Made by a program: the position numbers and the translations under genes. Of a stretch of 50,912 nucleotides of DNA, positions 4,009-49,240 are shown one piece after another. Within the stretch, counting starts at the first letter, position 1. Every line of letters starts with the position of its first letter. A model generated the notes under the pieces. That model had not been told where the DNA came from. It did no database searches and saw only the letters and a program-made list of their open reading frames with translations. Source of the stretch: Patescibacteria group bacterium (GTDB lineage Bacteria; Patescibacteriota; Minisyncoccia; Phycocordibacterales; 21-14-all-36-13); NCBI GenBank assembly GCA_038065915.1, contig JBBTPZ010000002.1, forward strand, positions 18,714 to 69,625. Reading direction: 5' to 3'.

Positions 4009-4037
4009 TTGACAAAAAAATCTAATCATGCTATCAT
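4009..4037 (+). promoter_or_regulatory. sigma70-type promoter TTGACA-N17-(TGc)TATCAT
   Basis: -35 at 4009-4014 and extended -10 at 4029-4037, upstream of the + strand small ORF. Confidence 0.6.
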
Positions 4038-4114
4038 ATATGTAGAAAAATTAAAGATAGTTTTTTTCAGAAAAAAACACCGGAGTTGCAGGAACAATAA
4101 AAATTCCAAATCTT

Positions 4115-4354
4115 TTGACTCTAACAGGATATTATGAGTCAATTAAGACAACATCTGGTTTTGTTACAATTACCCTTGGCAATTTAGGTGACCCATATTC
4201 TTGGTTTGTATATGATAGAACCAAAAAAACTTGGTCAAGTGAAATTGGCTGGACAAAAAAATATTCAATTGATACTAAAACCCATATTCTTGTTGGTTTC
4301 GGATATTTTCCTGAAGCAAAAATGTTTAATACTTATTTTTGGATACATCTATAG
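4115..4354 (+). CDS. hypothetical small aromatic-rich protein (79 aa, TTG start)
   Basis: Lies between the promoter at 4009-4037 and the terminator at 4368-4398. No SD and no ATG start, so an RNA-only transcript is possible. Confidence 0.4.
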   Translation: MTLTGYYESIKTTSGFVTITLGNLGDPYSWFVYDRTKKTWSSEIGWTKKYSIDTKTHILVGFGYFPEAKMFNTYFWIHL

Positions 4355-4367
4355 TTTAGATGTACCA

Positions 4368-4398
4368 AAACCGGCGATTCACATCGTCGGTTTTTTTT
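4368..4398 (+). terminator. intrinsic terminator
   Basis: ACCGGCGA-TTCACA-TCGTCGGT stem followed by T8. Confidence 0.7.
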
Positions 4399-4418
4399 AT
4401 CTTTTTCATTCCAAAAAA

Positions 4419-4456
4419 TCTACACCTATCTCTGCTATCGCAAAGATAAGTGTAGA
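4419..4456. repeat. family A hairpin (core CTGCTATCGCA, stem class TCTACA)
   Basis: TCTACACCTATCTCTGCTATCGCAAAGATAAGTGTAGA. Two C-A mismatches become G-U pairs on the minus-strand RNA. T6 follows on the minus strand. Confidence 0.9.
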
Positions 4457-4460
4457 GACT

Positions 4461-5009
4461 TTATAATTCAAATTCATCCTTTAATAAATCTTCATTACTG
4501 ATTTTTTCTGTTTCAAGAAAGATTATGTGTTTTGAAACACCAAAATATTCTCCAATAAATTTGATTTCCTTTTTGCATTCATATGGGGTAATAAAAACCG
4601 ATTTCTGTATTGGAGCACATCCAATTCTTATCAATTTTAGGGTTAATCCATCTCTGGCTGTTTTATGTTTTTCTGGAATATCAAACATTATTATTCTCCA
4701 AATCCCATCCCACCCCTTTTGCTCTTTTATCTTTATTTCATCTATTTTGTATTTCAAAATCTCTTTTCTTCCATTTTCTGTTATTTCAATTACATCAATT
4801 CCTTCTTTTTTATATTTTTTAACATATTTTTTGTTTTCTAATCTATCTATTGCTCGTCTAATTTTCTCCTTTTCTTTCCATGCTTCCGCATCAAACATTT
4901 TATAGACAAGAGGTAATTGTGGAAGTGCCATAGAACCAATTACAAAAGTTGCCCCCACTATTGCTTTTAATATATCTTTAGCTAATTCTCCTCTACTGTG
5001 TTTTTTCAT
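4461..5009 (-). CDS. PaaX-family / Cas2-fold-like small protein, paralog 1 (182 aa)
   Basis: WDGIWRIIMFDIPEKHKTARDGLTLKLIRIGCAPIQKSVFITPYE matches the Cas2-like beta-alpha-beta core seen in PaaX-type proteins. Collinear paralog at 41512..42060. Confidence 0.8.
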   Translation of the reverse strand: MKKHSRGELAKDILKAIVGATFVIGSMALPQLPLVYKMFDAEAWKEKEKIRRAIDRLENKKYVKKYKKEGIDVIEITENGRKEILKYKIDEIKIKEQKGWDGIWRIIMFDIPEKHKTARDGLTLKLIRIGCAPIQKSVFITPYECKKEIKFIGEYFGVSKHIIFLETEKISNEDLLKDEFEL

Positions 5010-5050
5010 ACAAATTATTTTTTGAATGCCACCTTACCCCTCTACATCTA

Positions 5051-5088
5051 TCTCTGCTATAGCAGAGATAGATGTAGAAAGAATTTCT
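5051..5088. repeat. family A hairpin (stem class TCTACA)
   Basis: Perfect palindrome TCTACATCTATCTCTGCTA/TAGCAGAGATAGATGTAGA, ~40 nt upstream of the paralog 1 start. Confidence 0.9.
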
Positions 5089-5174
5089 TCTTTTAAAAAA
5101 CAATTTTCTCACTGCTTATTTATTCATAACCCCATATATCCATATAATTCTTCTAAAAAAATATCATACTTTTA

Positions 5175-5214
5175 TTCTACACTTATCTTTGCTATCGCAA
5201 AGATAAGTGTAGAA
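5175..5214. repeat. family A hairpin (stem class TCTACA)
   Basis: TTCTACACTTATCTTTGCTATCGCAAAGATAAGTGTAGAA, directly after the murG stop. Confidence 0.9.
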
Positions 5215-5219
5215 AATAT

Positions 5220-6347
5220 CTACTTTTCGTGTTCCAAAGCAATTCTTATTAATTCTTTTGCGATTATTTTTGCTGAATCGGTTTTAGCGAATGATTTTGT
5301 TGCATTTATCATATTATTTCTTTTTGTTTCATTACCCATAATTTCTTCCACCTGTGAAATAAGTATGTCATCTGAAAGATTATTTTCTTCAATAACAATA
5401 GCAGAACCGGATGAAGCATAATTAAAGGCGTTTTTTCTTTGGTGATCTCCGTTTGAATTTGTTATTGGAATTATTATACTTGGAACACCCCAAACAGCTA
5501 TTTGAAAAATTGTTGAACCGGCTCTTGAAATAATTAAATCAGCGACCCCTGCAGACATTTTCATCGCAATCGTGTTCAAATAAGAAAAAGGTTTATATCT
5601 GTTTTTATATTTACTATTTTTTAATTCTATATCTGCCAAATTTTTTACATCTGCAAAATTTTTTTCTCCTGTTTGATGAATTATTTGATATTTTTCTACA
5701 AGTTTTGGAAGCGAATCAATAATTACATTATTTATTGTTTGAGAACCCAAGGAACCGCCTATTATAAAAATTACAGGAACATCTTTTTCTAATTTTAAAA
5801 ATTCTTCTGCCCCAGTTTTTGAAGGTTTTAATAATTCTTTCCTTATTGGATTACCCGTTAGGGCCACTTTTTCTTTTGGAAAATAATTTGATGCCTCTGG
5901 ATAAGAAATAGCAATCTTTTTGGCAAATTTTCCAGCCCACATATTGACTTTTCCGGGGACACTATCTGACTCATGAATTATTAGTGGAATTTTAAAAATT
6001 TTTGATGCAAGAATTACAGGAAAACTTCCATAACCTCCTTTTGAAAAAATTACATCTGGGAAAATATTGAATACAACAAAAACACTTTTTACTATTCCCC
6101 ACCCTGTTTTAAATAAATCAAAAAAGTTCATCAAAGAAAAATATCTTCTTAATTTTCCCGCTGATATTTTTTTATATTCTATACCAAGTTCAAAAAGAGC
6201 CCTTTTATCATAAACATCCGGTGCTAAAAAAAACAAATCTGGTTCTAATAGATTTTCATCTTTAACTATTTCCCTTATTTCTTCTGCAACGGCAATAATC
6301 GGATAAAAATGTCCGCCCGTGCCTCCGCCTGTAAATACAATTTTCAT
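5220..6347 (-). CDS. murG: UDP-GlcNAc:undecaprenyl-PP-MurNAc-pentapeptide GlcNAc transferase
   Basis: MKIVFTGGGTGGHFYP N-terminus and typical MurG length (375 aa). Confidence 0.95.
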   Translation of the reverse strand: MKIVFTGGGTGGHFYPIIAVAEEIREIVKDENLLEPDLFFLAPDVYDKRALFELGIEYKKISAGKLRRYFSLMNFFDLFKTGWGIVKSVFVVFNIFPDVIFSKGGYGSFPVILASKIFKIPLIIHESDSVPGKVNMWAGKFAKKIAISYPEASNYFPKEKVALTGNPIRKELLKPSKTGAEEFLKLEKDVPVIFIIGGSLGSQTINNVIIDSLPKLVEKYQIIHQTGEKNFADVKNLADIELKNSKYKNRYKPFSYLNTIAMKMSAGVADLIISRAGSTIFQIAVWGVPSIIIPITNSNGDHQRKNAFNYASSGSAIVIEENNLSDDILISQVEEIMGNETKRNNMINATKSFAKTDSAKIIAKELIRIALEHEK

Positions 6348-6547: not shown

Positions 6548-6716
6548 TAAAAAATCAAAATGAAAAATAATTATCCCTTCGGGAGATCTCCCGTAGGGAG
6601 ACAATGTAAAATATTAAAGTTACTGAACAAATTTTCTGAAAGAAAATTTGCAACTAATCTTTTGTTCGCCTTCGGCGAACTCCATAACTTTACACTTTGA
6701 GATTTACACTTTGCAT
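6548..6716. repeat. family D composite repeat (~150-170 bp; modules CCCTTCGGGAGATCTCCCGTAGGG, AAATTTTCTGAAAGAAAATTT, TTCGCCTTCGGCGAA, TTTACACTTTG)
   Basis: Abuts the ftsW stop. An inverted homologous copy lies at 7826-7990 and a direct copy at 33443-33592. Confidence 0.85.
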
Positions 6717-7825: not shown

Positions 7826-7990
7826 TAGAAAGTTAAAAATGCAAAAATCAAAATGCAAAGTTGTCGTATCCGCCGAAGGCGGACGAACAATTAGTTATAA
7901 ATTTTCTTTCAGAAAATTTACTCAATGATTCTAACATTTTAAATTGTCTCCCTACGGGAGATCTCCCGAAGGGATGGTCATTTTACACCT
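7826..7990. repeat. family D composite repeat, inverted relative to 6548-6716
   Basis: The reverse complement aligns module by module with 6575-6716. Abuts the ftsW start. Confidence 0.85.
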
Positions 7991-8056
7991 TGCCTGCCCC
8001 GTAGTTAAATTTGTAAAATTTATACTTCGGGGAGATTTGCATTTTAAATTTTTGTA

Positions 8057-9109
8057 CTACTTTAGTAGTGCAATAATAACTCCAACAAATGCAAATACAA
8101 CACTTATTACCCAATAACGCATTGTGACTTTATATCCCGGCCATCCTTTTGCTTCAAAATGATGATGTATTGGTGCTACAAGAAAAATTTTTTTCCCTCG
8201 CAATTTTTTAGACAAAATCTGAATAATATCGGAAAGTGTTGTTATGACTAAAGGAAAAGCAATGATTGGTAAAACAAGAACTTCTTTTGTTAAAAATGCA
8301 ACAACGGCCAAAGTCATTGTTAGTGCCATACTTCCTGTCTCTGACATATAAAATCTTGCTGGTGGAATATTAAACCACAGAAATGCAAGCAGACCACCAA
8401 CTATAACAAAACTAAAAGTCGCTAAATCAACTTGGTTTTGAACAAATGCTATTACTCCGTATGCTGAAAATGCGGAAGAAAAAACTCCACCGGCAAGTCC
8501 GTCAATTCCATCGATAACACCACCAGAATAAATACCAAGCATAACAATTATAAAAAATGGTATAAATAATAATCCTATATCAAGATCTCCAACCAAAGGT
8601 ATGGCGACAGATGTCATTTCAAGTTTTGAGTAAAACCACCAAGCACCTATCAGAGATACAACAAAAACAACAAGTAATCTCTTTTTTAAAGATAAACCGC
8701 CGGCGAGATGGTCTTTCTTTCCTTTCACTTCAAAATAGTCATCAATCAAACCTATGACCGCTCCTACCAAGAGAGTAAATAATGGCAACCATGTTTGATT
8801 TCTGCTGAAAAAATCTAATTTAGAAGTTATTTCAAAATTAAAAATATAAGGCAGTATTAAAAATAATAATGTAGTTAAAATTACACTCCCCCAAATTAAT
8901 ATTCCGCCCATTTTAGGTGTCCCGACTTCTTTTCCTTTGTGTAATTTATTAAAAATAGGAGTATCTTTTCCATCCATTCCTACCTTCCCTGATTTTTTTT
9001 TCCACATTTTATGCTTGTATAAATAACTTATCAAAACAGGAGCAAAGCCAATGCCTATCAAGAAAGCAATCGCCGATGGTGTAAATACTTTTATTATGTT
9101 TATTATCAT
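8057..9109 (-). CDS. mraY: phospho-N-acetylmuramoyl-pentapeptide transferase
   Basis: GTPKMGGILIW, DDYFEVKGK and APIHHHFE motifs. Confidence 0.95.
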   Translation of the reverse strand: MIINIIKVFTPSAIAFLIGIGFAPVLISYLYKHKMWKKKSGKVGMDGKDTPIFNKLHKGKEVGTPKMGGILIWGSVILTTLLFLILPYIFNFEITSKLDFFSRNQTWLPLFTLLVGAVIGLIDDYFEVKGKKDHLAGGLSLKKRLLVVFVVSLIGAWWFYSKLEMTSVAIPLVGDLDIGLLFIPFFIIVMLGIYSGGVIDGIDGLAGGVFSSAFSAYGVIAFVQNQVDLATFSFVIVGGLLAFLWFNIPPARFYMSETGSMALTMTLAVVAFLTKEVLVLPIIAFPLVITTLSDIIQILSKKLRGKKIFLVAPIHHHFEAKGWPGYKVTMRYWVISVVFAFVGVIIALLK

Positions 9110-9170
9110 AAAATCATTAAATCACAAAATCACTAAAACAAAAAACAATAGTTTTTACTTTATTTTTTAT

Positions 9171-9198
9171 TTGACATTATTTTTGTATCTGATATAAT
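9171..9198 (+). promoter_or_regulatory. strong promoter TTGACA-N16-(TGa)TATAAT
   Basis: -35 at 9171-9176, extended -10 at 9190-9198. Confidence 0.7.
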
Positions 9199-9204
9199 AT
9201 ATGT

Positions 9205-9343
9205 GGACTTGATTAAACGATGTTTTGTCGCTAGGATTTCTTATTTAATATTCTACAAAAATTTGAATAATAAGAGATCCTGGTTATGTTTATAGAAGCT
9301 ACCCCATTCTAGAAATAGATTGCTAACGGGTAGCTTTTTTTTT
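9205..9343 (+). ncRNA. candidate small RNA 1 (unknown family, ~140 nt)
   Basis: No ORF. Consensus promoter. 13-bp stem 9233-9245/9269-9281 has a U-G pair valid only on the + strand RNA. Terminator stem 9297-9304/9328-9335 plus T9. Confidence 0.55.
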
Positions 9344-9362
9344 ATTTATCCACATTTTCATT

Positions 9363-9389
9363 TTGACAGAACAATTACTACGTTATAAC
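9363..9389 (+). promoter_or_regulatory. promoter TTGACA-N15-TATAAC (alternative -10 TATAAT at 9403-9408)
   Basis: Read directly from the sequence. The spacer is suboptimal, so the TSS is uncertain. Confidence 0.45.
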
Positions 9390-9395
9390 ATAGTT

Positions 9396-9480
9396 AATGT
9401 CATATAATTAGATGTTCTTTATGTTTTCGGACACGCAGTTATTTGATTCTCTAAACTCCCACATGTGTGGGAGTTTTTTA
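9396..9480 (+). ncRNA. candidate small RNA 2 (unknown family, ~85 nt)
   Basis: Only a 25-codon ORF without SD. Terminator AACTCCCACA-TG-TGTGGGAGTT plus T6 at 9454-9479. Confidence 0.45.
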
Positions 9481-9502
9481 TTTAATTGAACATAAAAAAT
9501 AA

Positions 9503-9549
9503 TCATGGATTCAAATACTCCCTTGAAACATTTGAATTTGAATCCATGA
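9503..9549. repeat. family B hairpin lying inside the last 16 codons of the carboxypeptidase CDS
   Basis: Arms TCATGGATTCAAAT (9503-9516) and ATTTGAATCCATGA (9536-9549) encode ..MDSNSNVSREYLNP*. Confidence 0.85.
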
Positions 9550-10480
9550 CAATATCAACCAATTTTTTCATATCCTTAAACCTCCCTTCTTTGGTTGAAC
9601 CAAGAACGGAAATTATTATTGGTCGCATCATTCCATTATCAAAAGCCACTACAAGATTTCCTCCCGCCAAATCCGTATAACCGGTTTTTGAAGCTATCAC
9701 CCAAGGTATCTTATTTATAATTTCGTTAGTATTTTCTGTATTGTGAATTTTATTATCTTCAGATTTTAATTCCAATTTATTGTAGGAAGTAACCTCGAGT
9801 ATTTCTGGTTTATTTCGAACCATATAATCAAAAAGCATAGCAACATCTTGTGCTGAACCATAAGAGCCACTTAAAGATTTTTCATCAATATCTAATCCGG
9901 ACTCATTTAAAAAGTATGTCTGTTTCAGATTTAATTCTTTGGCTTTTTTATTCATTTTTTTAACAAACGACATTTCTTCCACACCGTTTTTATTTTTTGT
10001 GAACGATTGAACCGCAGAAGCAACTGCGCTTGCACCATCGTTTGACGAAGAAATAAGTGTAAAATCTATTAAATCTTTTAAATTCCATTTCTCGTTTTTT
10101 ATAAGTCCACCATTCCCATTTTTTTCATCAATATTTACTATTATATTTTTATTTTCATATTCACTAGCAATTAATGCTGTCATAATTTTTGAAAGAGATG
10201 CAAGTGGTAATTGTGCTTCTTTGTTTTGTGAAAAAATTTCTTTTTGGTTATAAACATCCCAAATAAACACGGCTTGCGCTTCAAGTCGTGCGTCTTTTAT
10301 TTTTTGAGCTATATTGTTAACAATATCTGTTTTTTGTATAGAAATTTCCGACTCGCTTTCTTTTTTTTCTGGGAAAGATATGTAAACAATTGAAAAAAAT
10401 AATAATACTATTGCAATAGAAAAAATAAATTTAATTAATCCTTCCTCTGGTTTTATTGTATTTTCTTCCATTTCGTCCAT
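9503..10480 (-). CDS. serine-type D-Ala-D-Ala carboxypeptidase (PBP5/S11-like)
   Basis: SLSK (SxxK), SSND (SxN) and KTGYT (KTG) motifs; N-terminal TM anchor. Confidence 0.9.
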   Translation of the reverse strand: MDEMEENTIKPEEGLIKFIFSIAIVLLFFSIVYISFPEKKESESEISIQKTDIVNNIAQKIKDARLEAQAVFIWDVYNQKEIFSQNKEAQLPLASLSKIMTALIASEYENKNIIVNIDEKNGNGGLIKNEKWNLKDLIDFTLISSSNDGASAVASAVQSFTKNKNGVEEMSFVKKMNKKAKELNLKQTYFLNESGLDIDEKSLSGSYGSAQDVAMLFDYMVRNKPEILEVTSYNKLELKSEDNKIHNTENTNEIINKIPWVIASKTGYTDLAGGNLVVAFDNGMMRPIIISVLGSTKEGRFKDMKKLVDIVMDSNSNVSREYLNP

Positions 10481-10575: not shown

Positions 10576-10677
10576 TGCCCCGTTAGAAATTCGGATGCTT
10601 TTAACGAACATTCTAATCCATAATTTTTTTTGTTTGATTTTTAAAGTTATTCGCCCTTAACGAACTTCTAATGGGGT
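10576..10677. repeat. long-range inverted repeat plus direct repeat TTAACGAAC(A)TTCTAAT x2
   Basis: CCCCGTTAGAAATTCG pairs with CGAACTTCTAATGGGG. The right arm abuts the scpB stop. Confidence 0.7.
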
Positions 10678-11271: not shown

Positions 11272-12027
11272 TTAATACTTCGGTAATGTTGGTTTGTTGC
11301 TCTCTATTTCTATATCTTCAAAATGATTATCTTGTTTTGCTAAAACGATTCCTTGTTTAACAAGTTCAAGTAAGGCGAGAAAACTTACGATAACATTAAC
11401 TTTTTCTGCCTTACTTTTATTTGAAAATTCATTAAAACTTAATCTAAAACTACTTTGTATTCTCTCACTTAAATTATTTATAATTTCTTCCAACTTAATT
11501 ACCTTCTTTATTTTTGTTGATTCTACTTTTTCTTTTTTAGGCAATCTCTCAACAAGTTTTTTTATTGATGATACTAAATTATCAATAGTTATGTCTTCAC
11601 TTGGAGAAAAAACCGGTTCTATTTGTTTTATATATTCCCTTTCATATATTTTATTTCCAATTGCAAGTTTAGAAATATGCTGACTTAGGTTTTTAATTTC
11701 TTGGTAGAGTTTCAATCTCGTTTCCAGATATTCAATATTTAATTCCTCTTCATCTGTTAGGTCTAAGTTTGGCAGTAATGATTTTGATTTTATTAAAAGC
11801 AAGGTTGAAGCTATAAGCAAAAAATCTGCTACATTTGGAACATCAAAATTTTCTAATTTATTTACGAAAGAAATATAGTCGTCTGTTACTTGTGCAAGAG
11901 AAATGTCGTTTACGAACAATTTTCGTTTTTCTATAAGCTCTAAAAGTAAGTCTAAGGGTCCTTCAAAAACATTCGTTTTGGCTACGAATGTTTTTGATAA
12001 AATCTGGTTATTTATTTCTTCCGTCAT
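11272..12027 (-). CDS. scpA: segregation and condensation protein A (kleisin)
   Basis: FEGPLDLLLELIEKRKL motif; 251 aa. Confidence 0.9.
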   Translation of the reverse strand: MTEEINNQILSKTFVAKTNVFEGPLDLLLELIEKRKLFVNDISLAQVTDDYISFVNKLENFDVPNVADFLLIASTLLLIKSKSLLPNLDLTDEEELNIEYLETRLKLYQEIKNLSQHISKLAIGNKIYEREYIKQIEPVFSPSEDITIDNLVSSIKKLVERLPKKEKVESTKIKKVIKLEEIINNLSERIQSSFRLSFNEFSNKSKAEKVNVIVSFLALLELVKQGIVLAKQDNHFEDIEIESNKPTLPKY

Positions 12028-12111
12028 TGACTTTTAATTGAGGTTATTATATACTTCTGGACAGAATAATCTTTTCAATTAAATATATTTTAACATAATT
12101 TTGGAGGATTT

Positions 12112-12279
12112 ATGTCTTCAGCGGATGTAGAAAAACTATTTCGAAGAAAACAAGAATTAACGAAAGAAAATGAGGAACTGAAAGAACAAATTTCTAAATT
12201 AAAACAAGAAAATCAAGAGTTAAAAAACGAAAATGAAAATCTCAAAATAACTCTTATGGGATTAGGCCCTGCTGTCTAA
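12112..12279 (+). CDS. 55-aa coiled-coil protein (below the ORF-track cutoff)
   Basis: GGAGGA SD 3 nt before the ATG. MSSADVEKLFRRKQELTKENEELKEQISKLKQENQELKNENENLKITLMGLGPAV. Terminator follows. Confidence 0.55.
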   Translation: MSSADVEKLFRRKQELTKENEELKEQISKLKQENQELKNENENLKITLMGLGPAV

Positions 12280-12283
12280 CACA

Positions 12284-12326
12284 AACCACAACATTTTAAT
12301 TAAAAAATGTTGTGGTTATTTTTTTT
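12284..12326. terminator. intrinsic terminator between convergent genes
   Basis: AACCACAACATTTT-AAT-TAAAAAATGTTGTGGTT plus T8. Confidence 0.75.
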
Positions 12327-12334
12327 CTGCGTAA

Positions 12335-12381
12335 GTCCGCATTTAGTCCGCGTTTAGCCCGCGTTTTTAGTTCGCGTTTTC
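12335..12381. repeat. four tandem 11-13 nt units AG(T/C)(C/T)CGC(A/G)TTT
   Basis: Units start at 12335, 12346, 12357 and 12370. The last two encode the aspS tail ..TRTKNAG* and its stop codon. Confidence 0.8.
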
Positions 12382-13778
12382 TTGATTTCTATCCCGAGCT
12401 CTTTTAATTGTTCATTTGAAACTTCTGAAGGAGCATTCATAAGTAAATCCCTACCGTCCCCTGTTTTTGGAAATGCTATAACTTCACGAATACTTGGTTC
12501 ATTTTGAAGCAACATAACAATTCGGTCTATTCCCCACGCGATTCCTCCGTGTGGAGGAGTACCAGAAAAAAATGCCTTCATCATATGCCCAAAATTTTTT
12601 TCAATGTCTTCCTCTTTATATCCCATAATTTCAAAAACCCTTTTTAATGCTTCCGGTCTGTGATTTCTTATACTTCCCCCACCTATTTCATATCCGTTCA
12701 AAACAATGTCATACTGGTCTGTTAAAATTTTTCCAATATTCTTTTTGCTAAGTAAATCGTCATAAAATTCTTTTTTAGGTGCTGAAAAGGGATTGTGTGT
12801 GAATGTCCAACCAGTTTGGGTATTTTCTCCGCCTGTGGCGGAAAAAAAAGGAAAGTCAACAATCCAACAAAACGCCAAAAGATCTGAATCGTTCCGGTCT
12901 TTTCTTAAATCAGGATTATCTCTTTTATATTTTTCCATCGCTTCTTTGTATGTAAGTCGTGGAAATGGAATTTCTTGTATTTTCTTTTCTGGGTAATTTT
13001 TTTGAATAATTTCAACGAGAGCTTTTTCATTCAATTGCATAACATCTTCTCTTTCAACAAAGCTCATTTCCAAATCCATTTGTGTAAATTCTGGTTGTCT
13101 GTCTCCTCTGCTATCTTCGTCTCTCATACATCTCGCAATTTGAAAATATTTTTCCATTCCTGAAGCCATCAAAAGTTGTTTGTATTGTTGTGGCGCTTGT
13201 GGTAAAGCATAAAATTTTCCATTTTGAACTCTTGAAGGCACAATAAAGTCGCGCGCTCCTTCCGGCGTTGATTTTGTTAAAATAGGTGTCTCAATTTCTA
13301 TAAATCCTTCTTTATCAAAAAAATCTCTTATTGATTTAACTAAATTGTGTCTATTTCTTATGTTTTTTTGCATTCTGTTTCGTCTCAAATCTAAATATCT
13401 ATATTTCATTCTTGTTTCTTCATTAACATCTTTTCCATCAGAACTTGTTTCAAAAGCAGGAGTTTCGGCTTCGTTTAAAACTTTAATTTCTTTGATTTCA
13501 ATTTCCACATCTCCGTTTTCTTGGTCTTTATTTATCATTTTTTCTGGTCTTTTGTTTACTATACCAAAAATTTCAACAACCCATTCGGTTCTTAGTGTCT
13601 CGGCTATTTTGTATGCTTCTTCGTGATTTGATAACGCGACCATTTGAACAATACCTGTCATGTCTCTCAAATCAATAAAAATAAGTTTTCCATGGTCGCG
13701 ACGAATATTAATCCAACCAGAAATTTTAACTTCCGAGCCAATATGTTTTTTTAGTTCTTTTATGTATATTCTGTTCAT
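12354..13778 (-). CDS. aspS: aspartyl-tRNA synthetase, bacterial type lacking the GAD insertion domain
   Basis: FYALPQAPQQYKQLLM and FQIARCMRDEDSRGDRQPEFTQMDLEMSF. NPDLRK runs almost directly into WIVDFPFF. Confidence 0.95.
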   Translation of the reverse strand: MNRIYIKELKKHIGSEVKISGWINIRRDHGKLIFIDLRDMTGIVQMVALSNHEEAYKIAETLRTEWVVEIFGIVNKRPEKMINKDQENGDVEIEIKEIKVLNEAETPAFETSSDGKDVNEETRMKYRYLDLRRNRMQKNIRNRHNLVKSIRDFFDKEGFIEIETPILTKSTPEGARDFIVPSRVQNGKFYALPQAPQQYKQLLMASGMEKYFQIARCMRDEDSRGDRQPEFTQMDLEMSFVEREDVMQLNEKALVEIIQKNYPEKKIQEIPFPRLTYKEAMEKYKRDNPDLRKDRNDSDLLAFCWIVDFPFFSATGGENTQTGWTFTHNPFSAPKKEFYDDLLSKKNIGKILTDQYDIVLNGYEIGGGSIRNHRPEALKRVFEIMGYKEEDIEKNFGHMMKAFFSGTPPHGGIAWGIDRIVMLLQNEPSIREVIAFPKTGDGRDLLMNAPSEVSNEQLKELGIEIKKTRTKNAG

Positions 13779-16915: not shown

Positions 16916-17012
16916 CAGCCAATTTAAATTTAATTTATTGTCAAATTAATAATACTCCATAGGGTCGCCATATCTCTGCGATAGCAGAAATATGGCGACC
17001 AGTTTTTGTTTT
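16916..17012 (+). ncRNA. candidate small RNA 3 (weak)
   Basis: TTGACA at 16880-16885 with an imperfect -10 (CATATA/TATACA). No ORF. Ends in the family A hairpin 16963-17000 plus TTTTTGTTTT. Confidence 0.3.
16963..17000. repeat. family A hairpin (stem class GTCGCC)
   Basis: GGTCGCCATATCTCTGCGATAGCAGAAATATGGCGACC. Confidence 0.9.
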
Positions 17013-23992: not shown

Positions 23993-24083
23993 CAAAAGAT
24001 TAAACCACTTTCTAATTCGCGCGAATTAGAAAGTGGTTTCTGCCTAGTAATTTAGTGATTTTATGTTTTTAAAAATACAAAAT

Positions 24084-24120
24084 ATTATGGATTCAAATGC
24101 TTTGAATGAGCATTTGAATT
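24084..24120. repeat. family B hairpin
   Basis: ATTATGGATTCAAATGC-TTTGAATGA-GCATTTGAATT, followed by the GTGATTTG x3 microrepeat at 24121-24146. Confidence 0.85.
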
Positions 24121-27442: not shown

Positions 27443-27482
27443 ATTATGGATTCAAACGCTCATTAAGAGCGTTTGAATTATG
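27443..27482. repeat. family B hairpin
   Basis: ATTATGGATTCAAACGCTC-ATTAA-GAGCGTTTGAATTATG. Confidence 0.85.
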
Positions 27483-30109: not shown

Positions 30110-30158
30110 ATTTTTAGTTTGTTTTTTGAAAATATATTATTGACTCAAAAACTCTACT

Positions 30159-30310
30159 GGAGCATAACACAAAAAAAATAATTATGGATTCAAATGCTCC
30201 CATGGAGCATAACACAAAAAAAATAATTATGGATTCAAATGCTCCCATGGAGCATAACACAAAAAAAATAATTATGGATTCAAATGCTCCCATGGAGCAT
30301 TTGAATTATG
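30159..30310. repeat. tandem repeat, 45-bp unit x3 plus a terminal complete family B hairpin
   Basis: Units GGAGCATAACACAAAAAAAATAATTATGGATTCAAATGCTCCCAT at 30159, 30204 and 30249. No spacers. Confidence 0.9.
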
Positions 30311-33442: not shown

Positions 33443-33592
33443 TTAAAAATGCAAATCTCAAAATGAAAAATGGCAATGCAAAATGTTAAAGTTATTAAGC
33501 AAATTTTTTTTCAGAAAATTTACAATAAATTGATTATTCGCCAAAGGCGAATTCCACAATTTTACACTTTGATTTTTTAATTTTGCATTTTT
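33443..33592. repeat. family D composite repeat (lacks the GGGAGATCTCCC module)
   Basis: Aligns with 6560-6716. Its ends are mutually inverted. Abuts the rpsK stop. Confidence 0.8.
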
Positions 33593-33594
33593 TA

Positions 33595-34029
33595 TCATAC
33601 TCTTCTAGTTTTAGGTGGTTTCGGACCATTATGTGGAATAGAAGTTACATCTCTAACAGAATTTAATTTTATTCCTTTTGATATAAAAGCTCTTATTGCC
33701 GACTCGCGTCCTGCACCAACACCATTTACAACCGCGTCTATTTTTTTTATTCCCATAATTTTTGCTTTTTCACCAATTAATTCTCCAACTTTTGCGGCAG
33801 CAAACGGAGTTCCTTTTTTTGCACCTTTGAAACCAAGTGCTCCAGAAGAAGACCACAAAATTACATTTCCACCTAAATCAGTCAAAGTAACAAGTGTGTT
33901 GTTATAAGTTGATTTTATAGAAAGTATTGCGGACTCTATTCTTTTCTTTGGTGTTTTAGAAATAGCCCGTGATTTTGCTTCACGATCCATTGTTGAGCCA
34001 GTTTTTTTAACTATTCGTTTTTTACCCAT
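33595..34029 (-). CDS. rpsK: 30S ribosomal protein S11
   Basis: GFKGAKKGTPFAA..PHNGPKPPKTRRV. Confidence 0.95.
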   Translation of the reverse strand: MGKKRIVKKTGSTMDREAKSRAISKTPKKRIESAILSIKSTYNNTLVTLTDLGGNVILWSSSGALGFKGAKKGTPFAAAKVGELIGEKAKIMGIKKIDAVVNGVGAGRESAIRAFISKGIKLNSVRDVTSIPHNGPKPPKTRRV

Positions 34030-37985: not shown

Positions 37986-38032
37986 TCAATCTATTTAAAA
38001 AAAATCCTGTCATTGACAGGATTTTTATTTTT
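37947..38032 (+). terminator. two consecutive intrinsic terminators
   Basis: CCAACCG..CGGTTGG plus a T-run, then AAAAATCCTGTCA-T-TGACAGGATTTTT plus a T-run. Confidence 0.65.
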
Positions 38033-38058: not shown

Positions 38059-38098
38059 AGGTCGCCATATCTCTGCTATCGCAGAGATATGGCGACCT
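38059..38098. repeat. family A hairpin (stem class GTCGCC)
   Basis: AGGTCGCCATATCTCTGCTATCGCAGAGATATGGCGACCT, perfect, just after the alaS stop. Confidence 0.9.
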
Positions 38099-38118
38099 AG
38101 TTTTATTTCATGTTTCTT

Positions 38119-41463: not shown

Positions 41464-41503
41464 AGGTCGCTCTATTTTTGCGATAGCAGAAATAGAGCGA
41501 CCT
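41464..41503. repeat. family A hairpin (stem GGTCGCTCTAT, core inverted: GCGATAGC)
   Basis: AGGTCGCTCTATTTTTGCGATAGCAGAAATAGAGCGACCT, just after the paralog 2 stop. Confidence 0.9.
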
Positions 41504-41511
41504 TAAATAAT

Positions 41512-42060
41512 TTACAACTCAAACTCATCTTTTAAAGAATCTTCATTACTAATTTTATTTGTTTCAAGGAAAATTATATGTTTTGCAATATCGAAGTATT
41601 CTCCAATAAATTTAATCTCCTTTTCGCATTCGTATGGACTAACAAAAACCGATTTTTGTATTGGAGCACAACCCATTTTTATCAATTTTAAGGTTAATCC
41701 ATCACGAGCCGTTTTCTTTTTTTCAGGAATATCAAACATTATTATTCTCCAGATGCCATCCCATCTTTTTTGTTCTTTTATTTTTATTTCGTCTAATTTA
41801 TATTTTAAAACTTCTTTTCTTCCATTTTCAGTTATTTCAACGACATCAATCCCTCCTTTTTTATATTTCTTTACATATTTTTTATTTTGTAATCTATCCA
41901 TTGCTTTTCTTACTCTTTCCTTTTCTCTTTTGTCTTCCGCATCAAACATTTTATAAATCATGGGTAGTTGTGGTAATGCAAGAGAAGAAACAAGAAATGC
42001 TGTTCCAACAAGTCCTTTTAAAATATTTTTCATTATTTCTCCATTTCTATATTTCTTCAT
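41512..42060 (-). CDS. PaaX-family / Cas2-fold-like small protein, paralog 2 (182 aa)
   Basis: Gap-free alignment with 4461..5009. By eye about 40 differences in 182 positions. Confidence 0.8.
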   Translation of the reverse strand: MKKYRNGEIMKNILKGLVGTAFLVSSLALPQLPMIYKMFDAEDKREKERVRKAMDRLQNKKYVKKYKKGGIDVVEITENGRKEVLKYKLDEIKIKEQKRWDGIWRIIMFDIPEKKKTARDGLTLKLIKMGCAPIQKSVFVSPYECEKEIKFIGEYFDIAKHIIFLETNKISNEDSLKDEFEL

Positions 42061-42260: not shown

Positions 42261-42300
42261 TAGTCGCCACATCTCTGCTATCGCAGAGATGTGGCGACTA
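42261..42300. repeat. family A hairpin (stem class GTCGCC)
   Basis: TAGTCGCCACATCTCTGCTATCGCAGAGATGTGGCGACTA, perfect. Confidence 0.9.
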
Positions 42301-42312
42301 TTATAAAATATA

Positions 42313-44364: not shown

Positions 44365-44370
44365 TAGTTT

Positions 44371-44379
44371 ATTATAACA
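44371..44379 (-). promoter_or_regulatory. extended -10 TGtTATAAT, 6 nt before the ATG (leaderless-type)
   Basis: ATTATAACA on the + strand. Confidence 0.45.
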
Positions 44380-44470
44380 TAATAAATTCATCATAAAATC
44401 ACTAAATCCATGAAACCATAAAAGCAATCTACTCTCTTATTCAATTGAATGGTTGTATAGGTAAAAATCC

Positions 44471-45042: not shown

Positions 45043-45086
45043 AAAAGTCGCCGTATCTCTGCTATCGCAAAGATACGGCGACTTTT
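45043..45086. repeat. family A hairpin (stem class GTCGCC)
   Basis: AAAAGTCGCCGTATCTCTGCTATCGCAAAGATACGGCGACTTTT. Confidence 0.9.
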
Positions 45087-45123
45087 GTTATTAAATTTTG
45101 AATTGTAGATTTGAGATTTTTTA

Positions 45124-47700: not shown

Positions 47701-48880
47701 TTAAATTTTTTATAACTCCTCCTCCTAAACATTCTTCTCCATCATACAAAACAACTGACTGACCGAGAGCAACTGCTTTCTGTTTTTCATCAAAAATTAT
47801 AAAAGTTTTTTCTTTTTTATACTGAACAAAACAACTTTGAAGTGGTTGACGATATCTTATTCTCCCTAAATATTTTTTACTTTCATTTGGTTTTTCCCCA
47901 GAAACCCAGTTTATATTTTGTATTTCTATTTTATTTGAATTATAAAGTGAAGATTCTTTTTCATCTCCTTCTCTTACAACAAGAGTATTATCATCTATAT
48001 TTTTTGAAATTATGTAATAAGGTTTTTGGTCCGGTTTCTTTTTAATAATTGTAAATCCGTGTCTTTGTCCTATTGTATAAAAGAACGCTCCTTCGTGATT
48101 CCCTATTATTTCTCCTTTTTCATTTAAAACATTCCCCTCTTTTTCTTTAACAAAATTTTTCAAAAATTCTTTCATTTGAATTTTCCCAATAAAACAAACA
48201 CCCTGGCTATCTTTCTTTTTAGCTGTCGCCAGATTATTTTCTTTAGCTATTTTTCTAACTTCACTTTTTTCTAAATCTCCAACCGGAAAAAGTGTATATT
48301 TCAATTGTTCTTGATTCAGTGTCCACAAAAAATATGATTGGTCTTTTTCTTTATCAACTCCCGCATACATTTTGTAAAACATATCATCTGCGTTCATCTG
48401 CGGTTTTTTATCTGCGTTAATCTGCGTCGTCTCTAGACGAGCGTAGTGTCCTGTCGCAATCGTGTCTGCTCCCATTTCTTTTGCTTTATCTAAAAACGCT
48501 CCAAATTTTATATTTTTATTACACATCACATCCGGATTTGGAGTTCTGCCTTTTTTATATTCTTCAATCATGCAATCGGCAACTTCTTTTTTATATTCTT
48601 TTTCAAAATCAAAAGTCAAAAAAGGTATGTTTAGTTGTGCGCAAATTTTCATTGCGTCATTTCTTTCTTTTTTCCAATCACACTCTAAAAAATCTGGATG
48701 CCAAACTTTTATAAAAACACCTGTTATGTCATATCCTTTTTCTTTCAACAGAAAAGCGGAAACGGATGAATCAACGCCACCCGATATTGCTACAAATATT
48801 TTTCTTGTCTCGAGCTTGCTTGCGGTGAGCTCGTCGAATCCGTCGAGAGATTTGTCTTTATTTAAAATCATGTTTGACAA
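47696..48880 (-). CDS. mnmA: tRNA 2-thiouridine(34) synthase
   Basis: AISGGVDSSV PP-loop, TGHYAR and KDQSYFL. Carries a repeat-derived insertion (see 48386-48427). Confidence 0.93.
   Translation of the reverse strand: MSNMILNKDKSLDGFDELTASKLETRKIFVAISGGVDSSVSAFLLKEKGYDITGVFIKVWHPDFLECDWKKERNDAMKICAQLNIPFLTFDFEKEYKKEVADCMIEEYKKGRTPNPDVMCNKNIKFGAFLDKAKEMGADTIATGHYARLETTQINADKKPQMNADDMFYKMYAGVDKEKDQSYFLWTLNQEQLKYTLFPVGDLEKSEVRKIAKENNLATAKKKDSQGVCFIGKIQMKEFLKNFVKEKEGNVLNEKGEIIGNHEGAFFYTIGQRHGFTIIKKKPDQKPYYIISKNIDDNTLVVREGDEKESSLYNSNKIEIQNINWVSGEKPNESKKYLGRIRYRQPLQSCFVQYKKEKTFIIFDEKQKAVALGQSVVLYDGEECLGGGVIKNLK
48386..48427. repeat. ATCTGCG short direct repeats x4, in frame inside mnmA
   Basis: Copies at 48386, 48396, 48410 and 48420 encode ..TQINADKKPQMNAD.. 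Confidence 0.85.
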
Positions 48881-48931
48881 AAATGATAAAATTATATATT
48901 ATACAAACTAGAAAAATTCTTTGGAGGTATT

Positions 48932-49141
48932 ATGACTTTTTGGAATTACTTCGCTGAAATATCAAATATTCCTGTACTAATCGTCTTGTTTTGCTTTTCG
49001 GTGGGAATATTTTATTCTTGTGAAAAATGGATAAAAATGATTTTGCGTTTTTTGTTCAAAGTTTCACTTCTTCCTATCTATATTGCCTTTATTATTTTAT
49101 TTGCTTTCGGAATTAAAAAAATAAGAAGTAAAAATTTGTGA
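48932..49141 (+). CDS. small 2-TM membrane protein (69 aa)
   Basis: GGAGG SD 4 nt before the ATG; own terminator. Confidence 0.55.
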   Translation: MTFWNYFAEISNIPVLIVLFCFSVGIFYSCEKWIKMILRFLFKVSLLPIYIAFIILFAFGIKKIRSKNL

Positions 49142-49144
49142 TTT

Positions 49145-49166
49145 AATGCCCTTCGGGGCATTTTTT
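49145..49166 (+). terminator. intrinsic terminator with UUCG loop
   Basis: AATGCCC-TTCG-GGGCATT plus a T-run. Confidence 0.8.
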
Positions 49167-49203
49167 ATTATTTTAGCGAGTAAACATAATTTTATAAATA
49201 AAA

Positions 49204-49240
49204 ATTATGGATTCAAAAGCTCATTCATCGCTTTTGAATT
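49204..49240. repeat. family B hairpin overlapping the trmD 3' end
   Basis: ATTATGGATTCAAAAGC-TCATTCATC-GCTTTTGAATT encodes ..SKAMNELLNP*. Confidence 0.85.

Follow-up and report, generated by a model that had tools for sequence, protein, structure and literature searches.

Introduction

Bacterial small RNAs (sRNAs) such as RybB, MicA and RoxS are transcribed from their own promoters, combine a conserved single-stranded 5' seed with a variable structured body and a Rho-independent terminator, and contain no open reading frame (ORF). The cyanobacterial sRNA Yfr1 is about 60 nt long and carries a conserved internal ACUCCUCACAC-type motif. Yfr1 acts in trans and represses mraY and murC in Nostoc (PMC6974561), which shows that sRNA control of mraY is possible. 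StfZ of Escherichia coli is a cis-antisense RNA located at the ftsA-ftsZ junction of the dcw cluster; it is 366-552 nt long, is made from three promoters, extends over the ribosome-binding region and the start of the coding sequence of ftsZ, and has been proposed to tune expression of this downstream essential gene (PMC9628754). Our literature searches found no report of regulatory sRNAs in the Candidate Phyla Radiation (Patescibacteria), a group of uncultured bacteria whose genomes are tiny and encode few recognisable regulators. Here we describe an element, unit 1, in a 50,912-nt stretch of a Patescibacteria genome (contig JBBTPZ010000002.1; "the window" hereafter denotes this whole stretch). 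Unit 1 lies between mraY and the gene of a Peptidase_S11 D-Ala-D-Ala carboxypeptidase (dac), and comparison with its homologues strongly supports its interpretation as a conserved, independent, non-coding sRNA gene.

On analogy, the nearest counterpart of unit 1 by position is StfZ, as both are non-coding, occupy an intergenic junction and run against a division/cell-wall gene row. Unlike StfZ, unit 1 is predicted to yield an RNA of ~137 nt from one perfect promoter with a canonical terminator, is confined to the spacer, and ends at or before the stop codon of the upstream gene; nor does it overlap the mraY ribosome-binding site or coding start, as StfZ does at ftsZ. The two have no sequence or structural similarity, and the host of unit 1 is a Parcubacterium. 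By target class, the nearest analogue would be Yfr1, which is likewise short and has stem-loops on either side of a conserved, unpaired stretch. The conserved sequence of unit 1 is a different one, however, and lies at the 5' end of an RNA twice as long; the two RNAs are unrelated in sequence and structure, the Rfam family of Yfr1 was not matched, and predicted pairing between unit 1 and the mraY leader did not rise above background. With RybB, MicA and RoxS, unit 1 shares its general layout and no sequence relationship. Unit 1 is a candidate new family of a known kind, the small regulatory RNA.

A promoter-to-terminator unit opposite the gene row

The dac and mraY genes belong to a co-oriented row, scpA-scpB-dac-mraY-ftsW-murG, and are separated by a spacer of 393 nt (Table 1). 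A first-pass annotation, made from the window sequence without database searches, had read this spacer as two tandem promoter-to-terminator units on the strand opposite to all neighbours and had proposed both as candidate novel sRNAs. The two units (units 1 and 2) are located where it placed them, on the + strand between genes of the - strand, and the proposal is strongly supported for unit 1, which has eight sequence variants, a conserved promoter and 5' tail, covarying helices and no ORF. The comparison gives no support to unit 2 as a conserved RNA, since it is missing or replaced in relatives (see below).

The promoter of unit 1 matches the sigma-70 consensus at 12 of 12 hexamer positions and carries the TG extension, the sole such site in the 5-14 kb region. 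Across the whole 50.9-kb window, three 12/12 sites were observed as compared to 0.135 expected from shuffled sequence. Most of the other perfect or near-perfect sites stand before real ORFs, which indicates that the organism uses the sigma-70 consensus. The transcript would begin near 9205, as judged from the spacing to the -10 element and the onset of the conserved block, and would thus span 9205-9343 of the + strand (~137 nt). The promoter as first annotated (TTGACA-N16-TGaTATAAT) and the ~140-nt unit closed by a stem and T9 are all present. Its 13-bp internal stem with one U-G pair also exists, but is in fact 15 bp long with three G·U pairs and an additional 5-bp apical extension. The fold energy of the predicted RNA (9205-9343) is -42.8 kcal/mol (z = -7.0). 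A simple terminator scan missed the unit 1 terminator because of its 23-nt loop; this loop has a semi-conserved motif, AGAAAUAGAUUG, and keeps an A-rich motif, AGAAAUAgAUUG.

Table 1. Location of features at the dac-mraY junction, in window coordinates.
Feature	Position	Strand	Details
mraY	8057-9109	-	
mraY upstream leader	9110-9170	-	U-rich; (G/A)TGATTT repeats with a period of ~8 nt; GGAGG absent; separates the mraY ATG (9109) from the sRNA -35 hexamer
Unit 1, whole (promoter to T-run)	9171-9343	+	
Unit 1 promoter	9171-9198	+	-35 TTGACA at 9171-9176, 16-nt spacer, extended -10 TGaTATAAT at 9190-9198
Predicted single-stranded 5' tail	9205-9229	+	GGACUUGAUUAAACGAUGUUUUGUC; most conserved segment, candidate seed/first-contact region
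Long hairpin (minimum free energy fold)	9230-9284	+	15-bp stem (9230-9244 with 9270-9284, three G·U), 4-nt bulge at 9245-9248, 5-bp apical stem (9249-9253 with 9265-9269), 11-nt loop
Unit 1 intrinsic terminator	9296-9343	+	9-bp stem (9296-9304 with 9328-9336), 23-nt loop, T9 run at 9335-9343
Unit 2, whole	9363-9482	+	
Unit 2 promoter-like site	9363-9391	+	TTGACA at 9363-9368; weak -10, either TAACAT (17-nt spacing; 10/12, no TG) or TATAAC (15-nt spacing)
Unit 2 body and terminator hairpin	9398-9482	+	Perfect 10-bp stem at 9453-9476, T6 run at 9474-9479 including three stem T; matched by terminator scan
D2 palindromic repeat copy	9490-9547	-	Last ~14 codons and stop of the carboxypeptidase gene, then a - strand T-run; borders the variable segment
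Peptidase_S11 D-Ala-D-Ala carboxypeptidase (dac)	9503-10480	-	

Homologues of unit 1 form a narrow family

Homologues were sought by tracing the closer homologues of MraY (84-92% identity) and of the carboxypeptidase (76-97%) to their contigs, which were then examined by synteny. A DNA pattern scan of the Joint Genome Institute (JGI) metagenomes added one further lineage, L100; of its 27 matches, 22 belonged to one marine coding sequence with no relation to unit 1 and two others were single hits due to chance, and these were rejected. In total, unit 1 was found at the carboxypeptidase-mraY junction in eight distinct sequences (the window, L127, L128, L085, L100, L086/L090, L133/L134 and L135), and every member is in reverse orientation relative to the gene row. 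Seven variants could be aligned across the promoter; all seven have the same two hexamers and the TG, and in five the promoter spacer is conserved as well. A covariance model built from three of the sequences found four members that it had not seen, with E-values between 2e-6 and 6e-11.

More distant relatives are without the family. Searches of 80 distant Parcubacteria mraY loci with the spacer using blastn and nhmmer gave no similarity, and covariance models (R1, R2) identified no unit 1 members in these 80 loci either. Three relatives, L093, L097 and L099, are without unit 1 and have carboxypeptidase-mraY junctions of 30, 132 and 106 nt, respectively. This absence, in the distant loci as in the three relatives, suggests that the family is both young and narrow. 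Repeat and covariance-model scans of the window gave no second copy.

The window originates from a groundwater Patescibacteria/Parcubacteria genome. Its GC content is ~30% and almost every gene is on the - strand; the top matches of its MraY among reference genomes were metagenome-assembled genomes of Patescibacteria/Parcubacteria (56-73% identity), and the Hainich groundwater metagenomes hold contigs identical to it. On the distribution of its homologues, unit 1 is a putative new RNA family confined to a narrow, roughly genus-level clade of groundwater Parcubacteria.

No described RNA family matched unit 1. As the first-pass annotation had anticipated, a search of the window, L085, L086 and L100 against Rfam 15, whose families include 6S, SRP, tmRNA, RNase P, Yfr1, riboswitches and leaders, returned zero matches at the gathering score, and a permissive Rfam scan of 9000-9600 gave only terminator-driven noise (E >= 0.19). 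ARAGORN reported no tRNA or tmRNA. A 6S RNA (~180 nt, with a closing stem formed by the paired ends and a central bubble) was rejected, given that in the unit 1 consensus the 5' tail is free and the two hairpins form independently of each other. A riboswitch or leader was likewise rejected, as the next sequence on the + strand is the antisense of the carboxypeptidase gene; in relatives, the unit 1 terminator adjoins the stop codon of that gene. A type I toxin-antitoxin locus was rejected on the grounds that neither strand of unit 1 contains a conserved ORF.

Covariation, strandedness and coding potential

The covariation analysis of homologous spacers that the first-pass annotation had proposed supports a structured RNA. 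In the eight-sequence alignment, 96.9% of cells are paired and 16 of the 29 pairs show double compensatory changes, although these counts are biased towards the model structure, to which the underlying alignment was fitted. The changes are spread over all helices: 9 of the 15 pairs in helix 1 (98.3% of cells paired), 2 of 5 in helix 2 (92.3%), and 5 of 9 in helix 3, the terminator stem (97%). None of 500 shuffles matched the observed values, and slid controls were 40-56% paired. Compensatory changes are also seen by eye in a MAFFT alignment, and the independent minimum free energy folds of divergent members share the same architecture.

Pairing on the + strand involves 218 of 225 cells (including 24 G·U and 3 A·C), as compared to 197 of 225 on the other strand, and this G·U asymmetry identifies the + strand as the structured one. 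T-runs trail the stems on the + strand only; in L133, the T-run comes after a second hairpin situated further downstream of the unit 1 stem. Conservation of primary sequence is concentrated at the 5' end, where the tail GGACUUGAUAAACGAUGUUU, unpaired in the consensus structure, is nearly invariant (mean pairwise identity of 0.86 versus 0.51-0.69 in the other segments of unit 1).

Unit 1 does not appear to encode a protein. Six-frame translations of four lineages revealed no shared ORF. The conserved ACGATG contains an ATG, but a coding reading of it was rejected as the ORFs downstream of it are 4, 35, 16 and 11 codons long, depending on the lineage. Furthermore, unit 1 is without a Shine-Dalgarno sequence (GGAGG), whereas the genuine small + strand genes of the window carry GGAGG.

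Possible modes of action

Of the modes of action considered, we regard as the likeliest, at about even odds, that unit 1 pairs as an antisense RNA with the operon transcript where this crosses the carboxypeptidase-mraY junction. For this to occur mraY would have to be transcribed by read-through from the carboxypeptidase gene, which is probable, since at least one member has no room for a dedicated mraY promoter and none was recognisable in two others that were scanned: the mraY ATG and the sRNA -35 hexamer of L133 are separated by 18 nt, and scans of the L100 and L086 spacers for promoter-like sites gave none on the mRNA strand. The co-orientation of the gene row also favours an antisense relationship, as does the operon-like junction spacing (30-132 nt) of relatives that lack the sRNA, and in L085, L100 and L086 the 3' end of the sRNA adjoins or overlaps the carboxypeptidase stop codon. 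Because the sRNA lies antisense within the dac-mraY junction, any read-through RNA would be fully complementary to it. An abundant sRNA could then pair with the junction, its 5' tail making the first contact 50-100 nt upstream of the mraY start, while its strong promoter would also fire head-on against the operon. In combination, pairing and head-on firing may determine the amount of surviving mraY-ftsW-murG message, for instance because duplexes are cleaved or polymerases collide.

Several points weigh against this proposal. Both the sRNA and the read-through mRNA are themselves predictions. The expected 5' end of the sRNA (~9205) is 96 nt upstream of the mraY ATG (9109) and overlaps neither the start codon nor the ribosome-binding region, so that any effect on mraY would be indirect. 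Hairpins with T-rich tails are present on the mRNA strand at 9490-9538 in the window and at 2932-2970 in L086, and these might end the carboxypeptidase transcript. In addition, the conserved spacer contains TAAAAT on the mRNA strand, and a weak promoter for mraY is conceivable there, overlapping that of the sRNA. Lastly, the extra conservation of the 5' tail would suit a seed that acts in trans; a pure cis-antisense RNA needs none.

The last of these points leads to a second reading, tentative but to be taken seriously, in which unit 1 is a trans-acting base-pairing sRNA whose invariant, unstructured 5' tail is a seed that pairs with mRNAs encoded at other genomic sites, and in which adjacency to mraY is incidental or reflects co-regulation only. 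A tail that is the most conserved segment, together with stems that drift with compensation, is the classic pattern of seed-type sRNAs, such sRNAs typically have this arrangement of tail, hairpin and terminator, and Yfr1 offers a precedent as a trans repressor of mraY and murC in Nostoc (PMC6974561). However, RNAduplex predictions for the tail against 54 translation-initiation regions of the window were no better than those for shuffled tails, the neighbouring genes of four lineages showed no consistent pairing site, and the window contains no complementary 18-mer with up to 3 mismatches. Since this target search covered only 50 kb of the genome, a trans-acting role stays a close rival of antisense pairing at the junction.

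It is also conceivable, if quite unlikely, that the act of transcription rather than the RNA matters, with the promoter serving as a roadblock or competitor through head-on collision, or through occlusion of an overlapping mraY promoter, and the RNA arising as a by-product. Strict conservation of the 12/12 promoter with its TG, extending to the spacer in five lineages, is compatible with such interference, as are the orientation of the sRNA towards the operon, the proximity of the -35 hexamer to the mraY ATG (as near as 18 nt) and the strong terminators that shield the carboxypeptidase gene. Yet a 20-bp internal hairpin that is unneeded for termination has been maintained by compensatory changes, which makes pure interference less likely, and the sequences of the 5' tail and terminator loop are conserved as well. 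Taken together, the hairpin compensation and the conserved tail and loop point to selection on the RNA product itself.

Highly improbable, finally, is a reading of the region as structural or repeat DNA (palindromes akin to repetitive extragenic palindromic [REP] sequences or miniature inverted-repeat transposable elements [MITE], or bidirectional terminators belonging to the genes on either side) with chance promoter-like hexamers in AT-rich sequence: the window is indeed rich in dispersed palindromic repeats, a D2 copy adjoins unit 2, and promoter-like sites at 9-10/12 are no commoner than in shuffles, but unit 1 is single-copy, its perfect promoter is conserved in the seven variants aligned across it, its T-runs are one-stranded, 24 G·U against 3 A·C pairs argue for pairing of RNA and not DNA, and a palindrome model does not predict a conserved unpaired 5' tail. 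A dispersed REP/MITE-like repeat was rejected for both units, as each is single-copy in the window and only the adjacent D2 is repeated.

With its conserved perfect promoter, clear covariation and fixed position against mraY-ftsW-murG, unit 1 is a concrete candidate for the tuning of wall synthesis and division in Candidate Phyla Radiation cells, and one that can be sought directly in existing groundwater metatranscriptomes. As the family is very narrow and its function putative, the immediate impact is modest.

Unit 2 and the strain-variable segment

Unit 2 lies outside the conserved unit 1 gene and is unconfirmed as an RNA gene. The TTGACA, hairpin and T6 that the first-pass annotation assigned to a second, ~85-nt unit are present; its promoter, however, has a weak -10 (10/12) and is no better than many chance sites. 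The fold energy of unit 2 is -23.5 kcal/mol (z = -4.4). No homologue was found in any fetched locus. Unit 2 resembles neither unit 1 nor the repeats of the window, and an origin by duplication of the one or copying of the other was rejected. In L085, L100, L086 and L135 unit 2 is absent and the unit 1 terminator leads straight to the carboxypeptidase stop codon, while L133 has only an extra hairpin with T7 at this position. In the sister strain (L127-L132), the same position is occupied by TTGACA-N15-TATAAG, followed by ~60 nt of unrelated body sequence and by another hairpin, again with a T-run. Identity between the window and L127 is 48% inside 9346-9500 and 96.7% outside, and the sister strain retains the TTGACA and ACGnTATAA of unit 2, as it would at a background identity of 96.7% in any case.

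Breaks occur in this region in two independent Hainich assemblies. One contig (L083) ends at window position 9213, and a second (L082) has a gap of 100 N at its positions 2797-2896, over window 9214-9587. An apparent 374-to-100-nt replacement in L082 was therefore rejected as an allele, the run of 100 N being a scaffold gap, and the near-identical contigs L081-L084 offered no variation to compare. The coincidence of the assembly breaks with the strain-variable segment is consistent with co-existing alleles. Scans of viral contigs for the 5' tail of unit 1 and for both unit 2 hairpins produced chance matches only.

Given that the unit 2 bodies differ or are absent among relatives, the recurring element appears to be a + strand hairpin with a T-run and not a particular sequence. 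The most economical reading of unit 2 is that of a fast-evolving back-up terminator, which would shield the carboxypeptidase gene from residual antisense transcription driven by the strong unit 1 promoter and possibly doubles as a strain-specific short RNA. We regard as doubtful the alternative that unit 2 is a genuine, strain-specific second sRNA gene, within a slot that exchanges short transcription units between near-identical strains. The window and L127-L132 do agree in arrangement at this position, each with TTGACA-N15-TATAA(C/G), a body of 60-85 nt and a strong hairpin that ends in a T-run, identity falls to 48% in this segment only, and the assemblies break exactly there, consistent with co-existing alleles. 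Against a second sRNA gene, the -10 is weak and the 15-nt spacing unusual, the kept hexamers sit within 96.7%-identical sequence, five other lineages are without any second promoter, neither covariation nor other comparative support was obtained, and a back-up terminator accounts for the same data.

In its boldest form the case would combine the two units: unit 1 as a lineage-specific antisense riboregulator in the cell-wall/division operon of ultra-small, probably host-dependent Parcubacteria, gating mraY-ftsW-murG, and unit 2 as an exchangeable slot that holds different short RNAs in near-identical strains. We think this combination unlikely; if true, riboregulation of cell division would be described for the first time in the Candidate Phyla Radiation.

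An ORF of 32 codons on the - strand (9408-9506), whose ATG shares bases with the carboxypeptidase TGA (ATGA), crosses the unit 2 hairpin in antisense direction. As this ORF is lineage-specific and not hydrophobic, it has probably arisen by chance.

Repeats and other transcription units in the window

The gene downstream of unit 1 on the mRNA strand, mraY, is without GGAGG, and the (G/A)TGATTT repeats of its leader fall within 9098-9145 (-); a reading of the GTGATTT repeats as an MraZ box is conceivable. L100 has four TTGTTTTA repeats at the equivalent position. A leader much like that of mraY, TTTAGTGATTTT(G/A)TGAT, is located at 44367-44406 (-) ahead of a PD-(D/E)XK nuclease gene, which likewise faces a perfect + strand promoter (44471).

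Several families of repeats are present. The D2 family (ATGGATTCAAATGCTCC..GGAGCATTTGAATT) was found at 9490-9547, 10585-10635, 24072-24120, 27443-27480, 30129-30307 and 49192-49240. The 30129-30307 locus consists of four tandem 45-nt units, and an inverted copy lies just upstream of the carboxypeptidase gene, whose C-terminus departs from that of its relatives exactly at the D2 copy bordering the variable segment. A second family comprises hairpins with a conserved centre, ATCTCTGCTATCGCAGAGAT, and outer stems that vary yet stay complementary (4419-4468, 5041-5090, 5176-5225, 16963-17011, 38060-38108, 41465-41513, 42262-42310 and 45046-45094). Several of these flank two PaaX_M genes (Cas2-like domain), one at 4461-5009 and the other at 41512-42060; the two genes are paralogues and have a 300-nt repeat in common, with 84% identity. 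Furthermore, ftsW is flanked by 157-nt inverted repeats (6556-6712 and 7836-7992; 80% complementary), with a related third copy 26 kb off at 33474-33598.

Other + strand transcription units may exist in the window. At 4009-4400, a TTGACA-17-TGcTATCAT site (11/12 plus TG) lies where 640 nt separate genes of the - strand, and a hairpin with T8 (4370-4398) comes ~350 nt after it; there is no obvious long ORF with a Shine-Dalgarno sequence, and a further unit for an RNA or a small protein could thus lie on the opposite strand here. The TTGACA at 38013 was rejected as a promoter, as it belongs to a terminator hairpin, whose loop contains it. Among small protein genes on the + strand of this genome, a genuine example is 48874-49170, with an 11/12 promoter, GGAGG (48923-48927) 4 nt before the ATG (48932), a hydrophobic product of 69 aa, and a GC hairpin with T-run. 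Between scpA and a gene for a class II aminoacyl-tRNA synthetase of the D/K/N type (12354-13778), the region 12027-12325 contains a 55-aa ORF on the + strand (12112-12279), together with a promoter-like site (12027) and a terminator (12284-12317); the relatives L082, L086 and L093 likewise have a small gene called there on the opposite strand.

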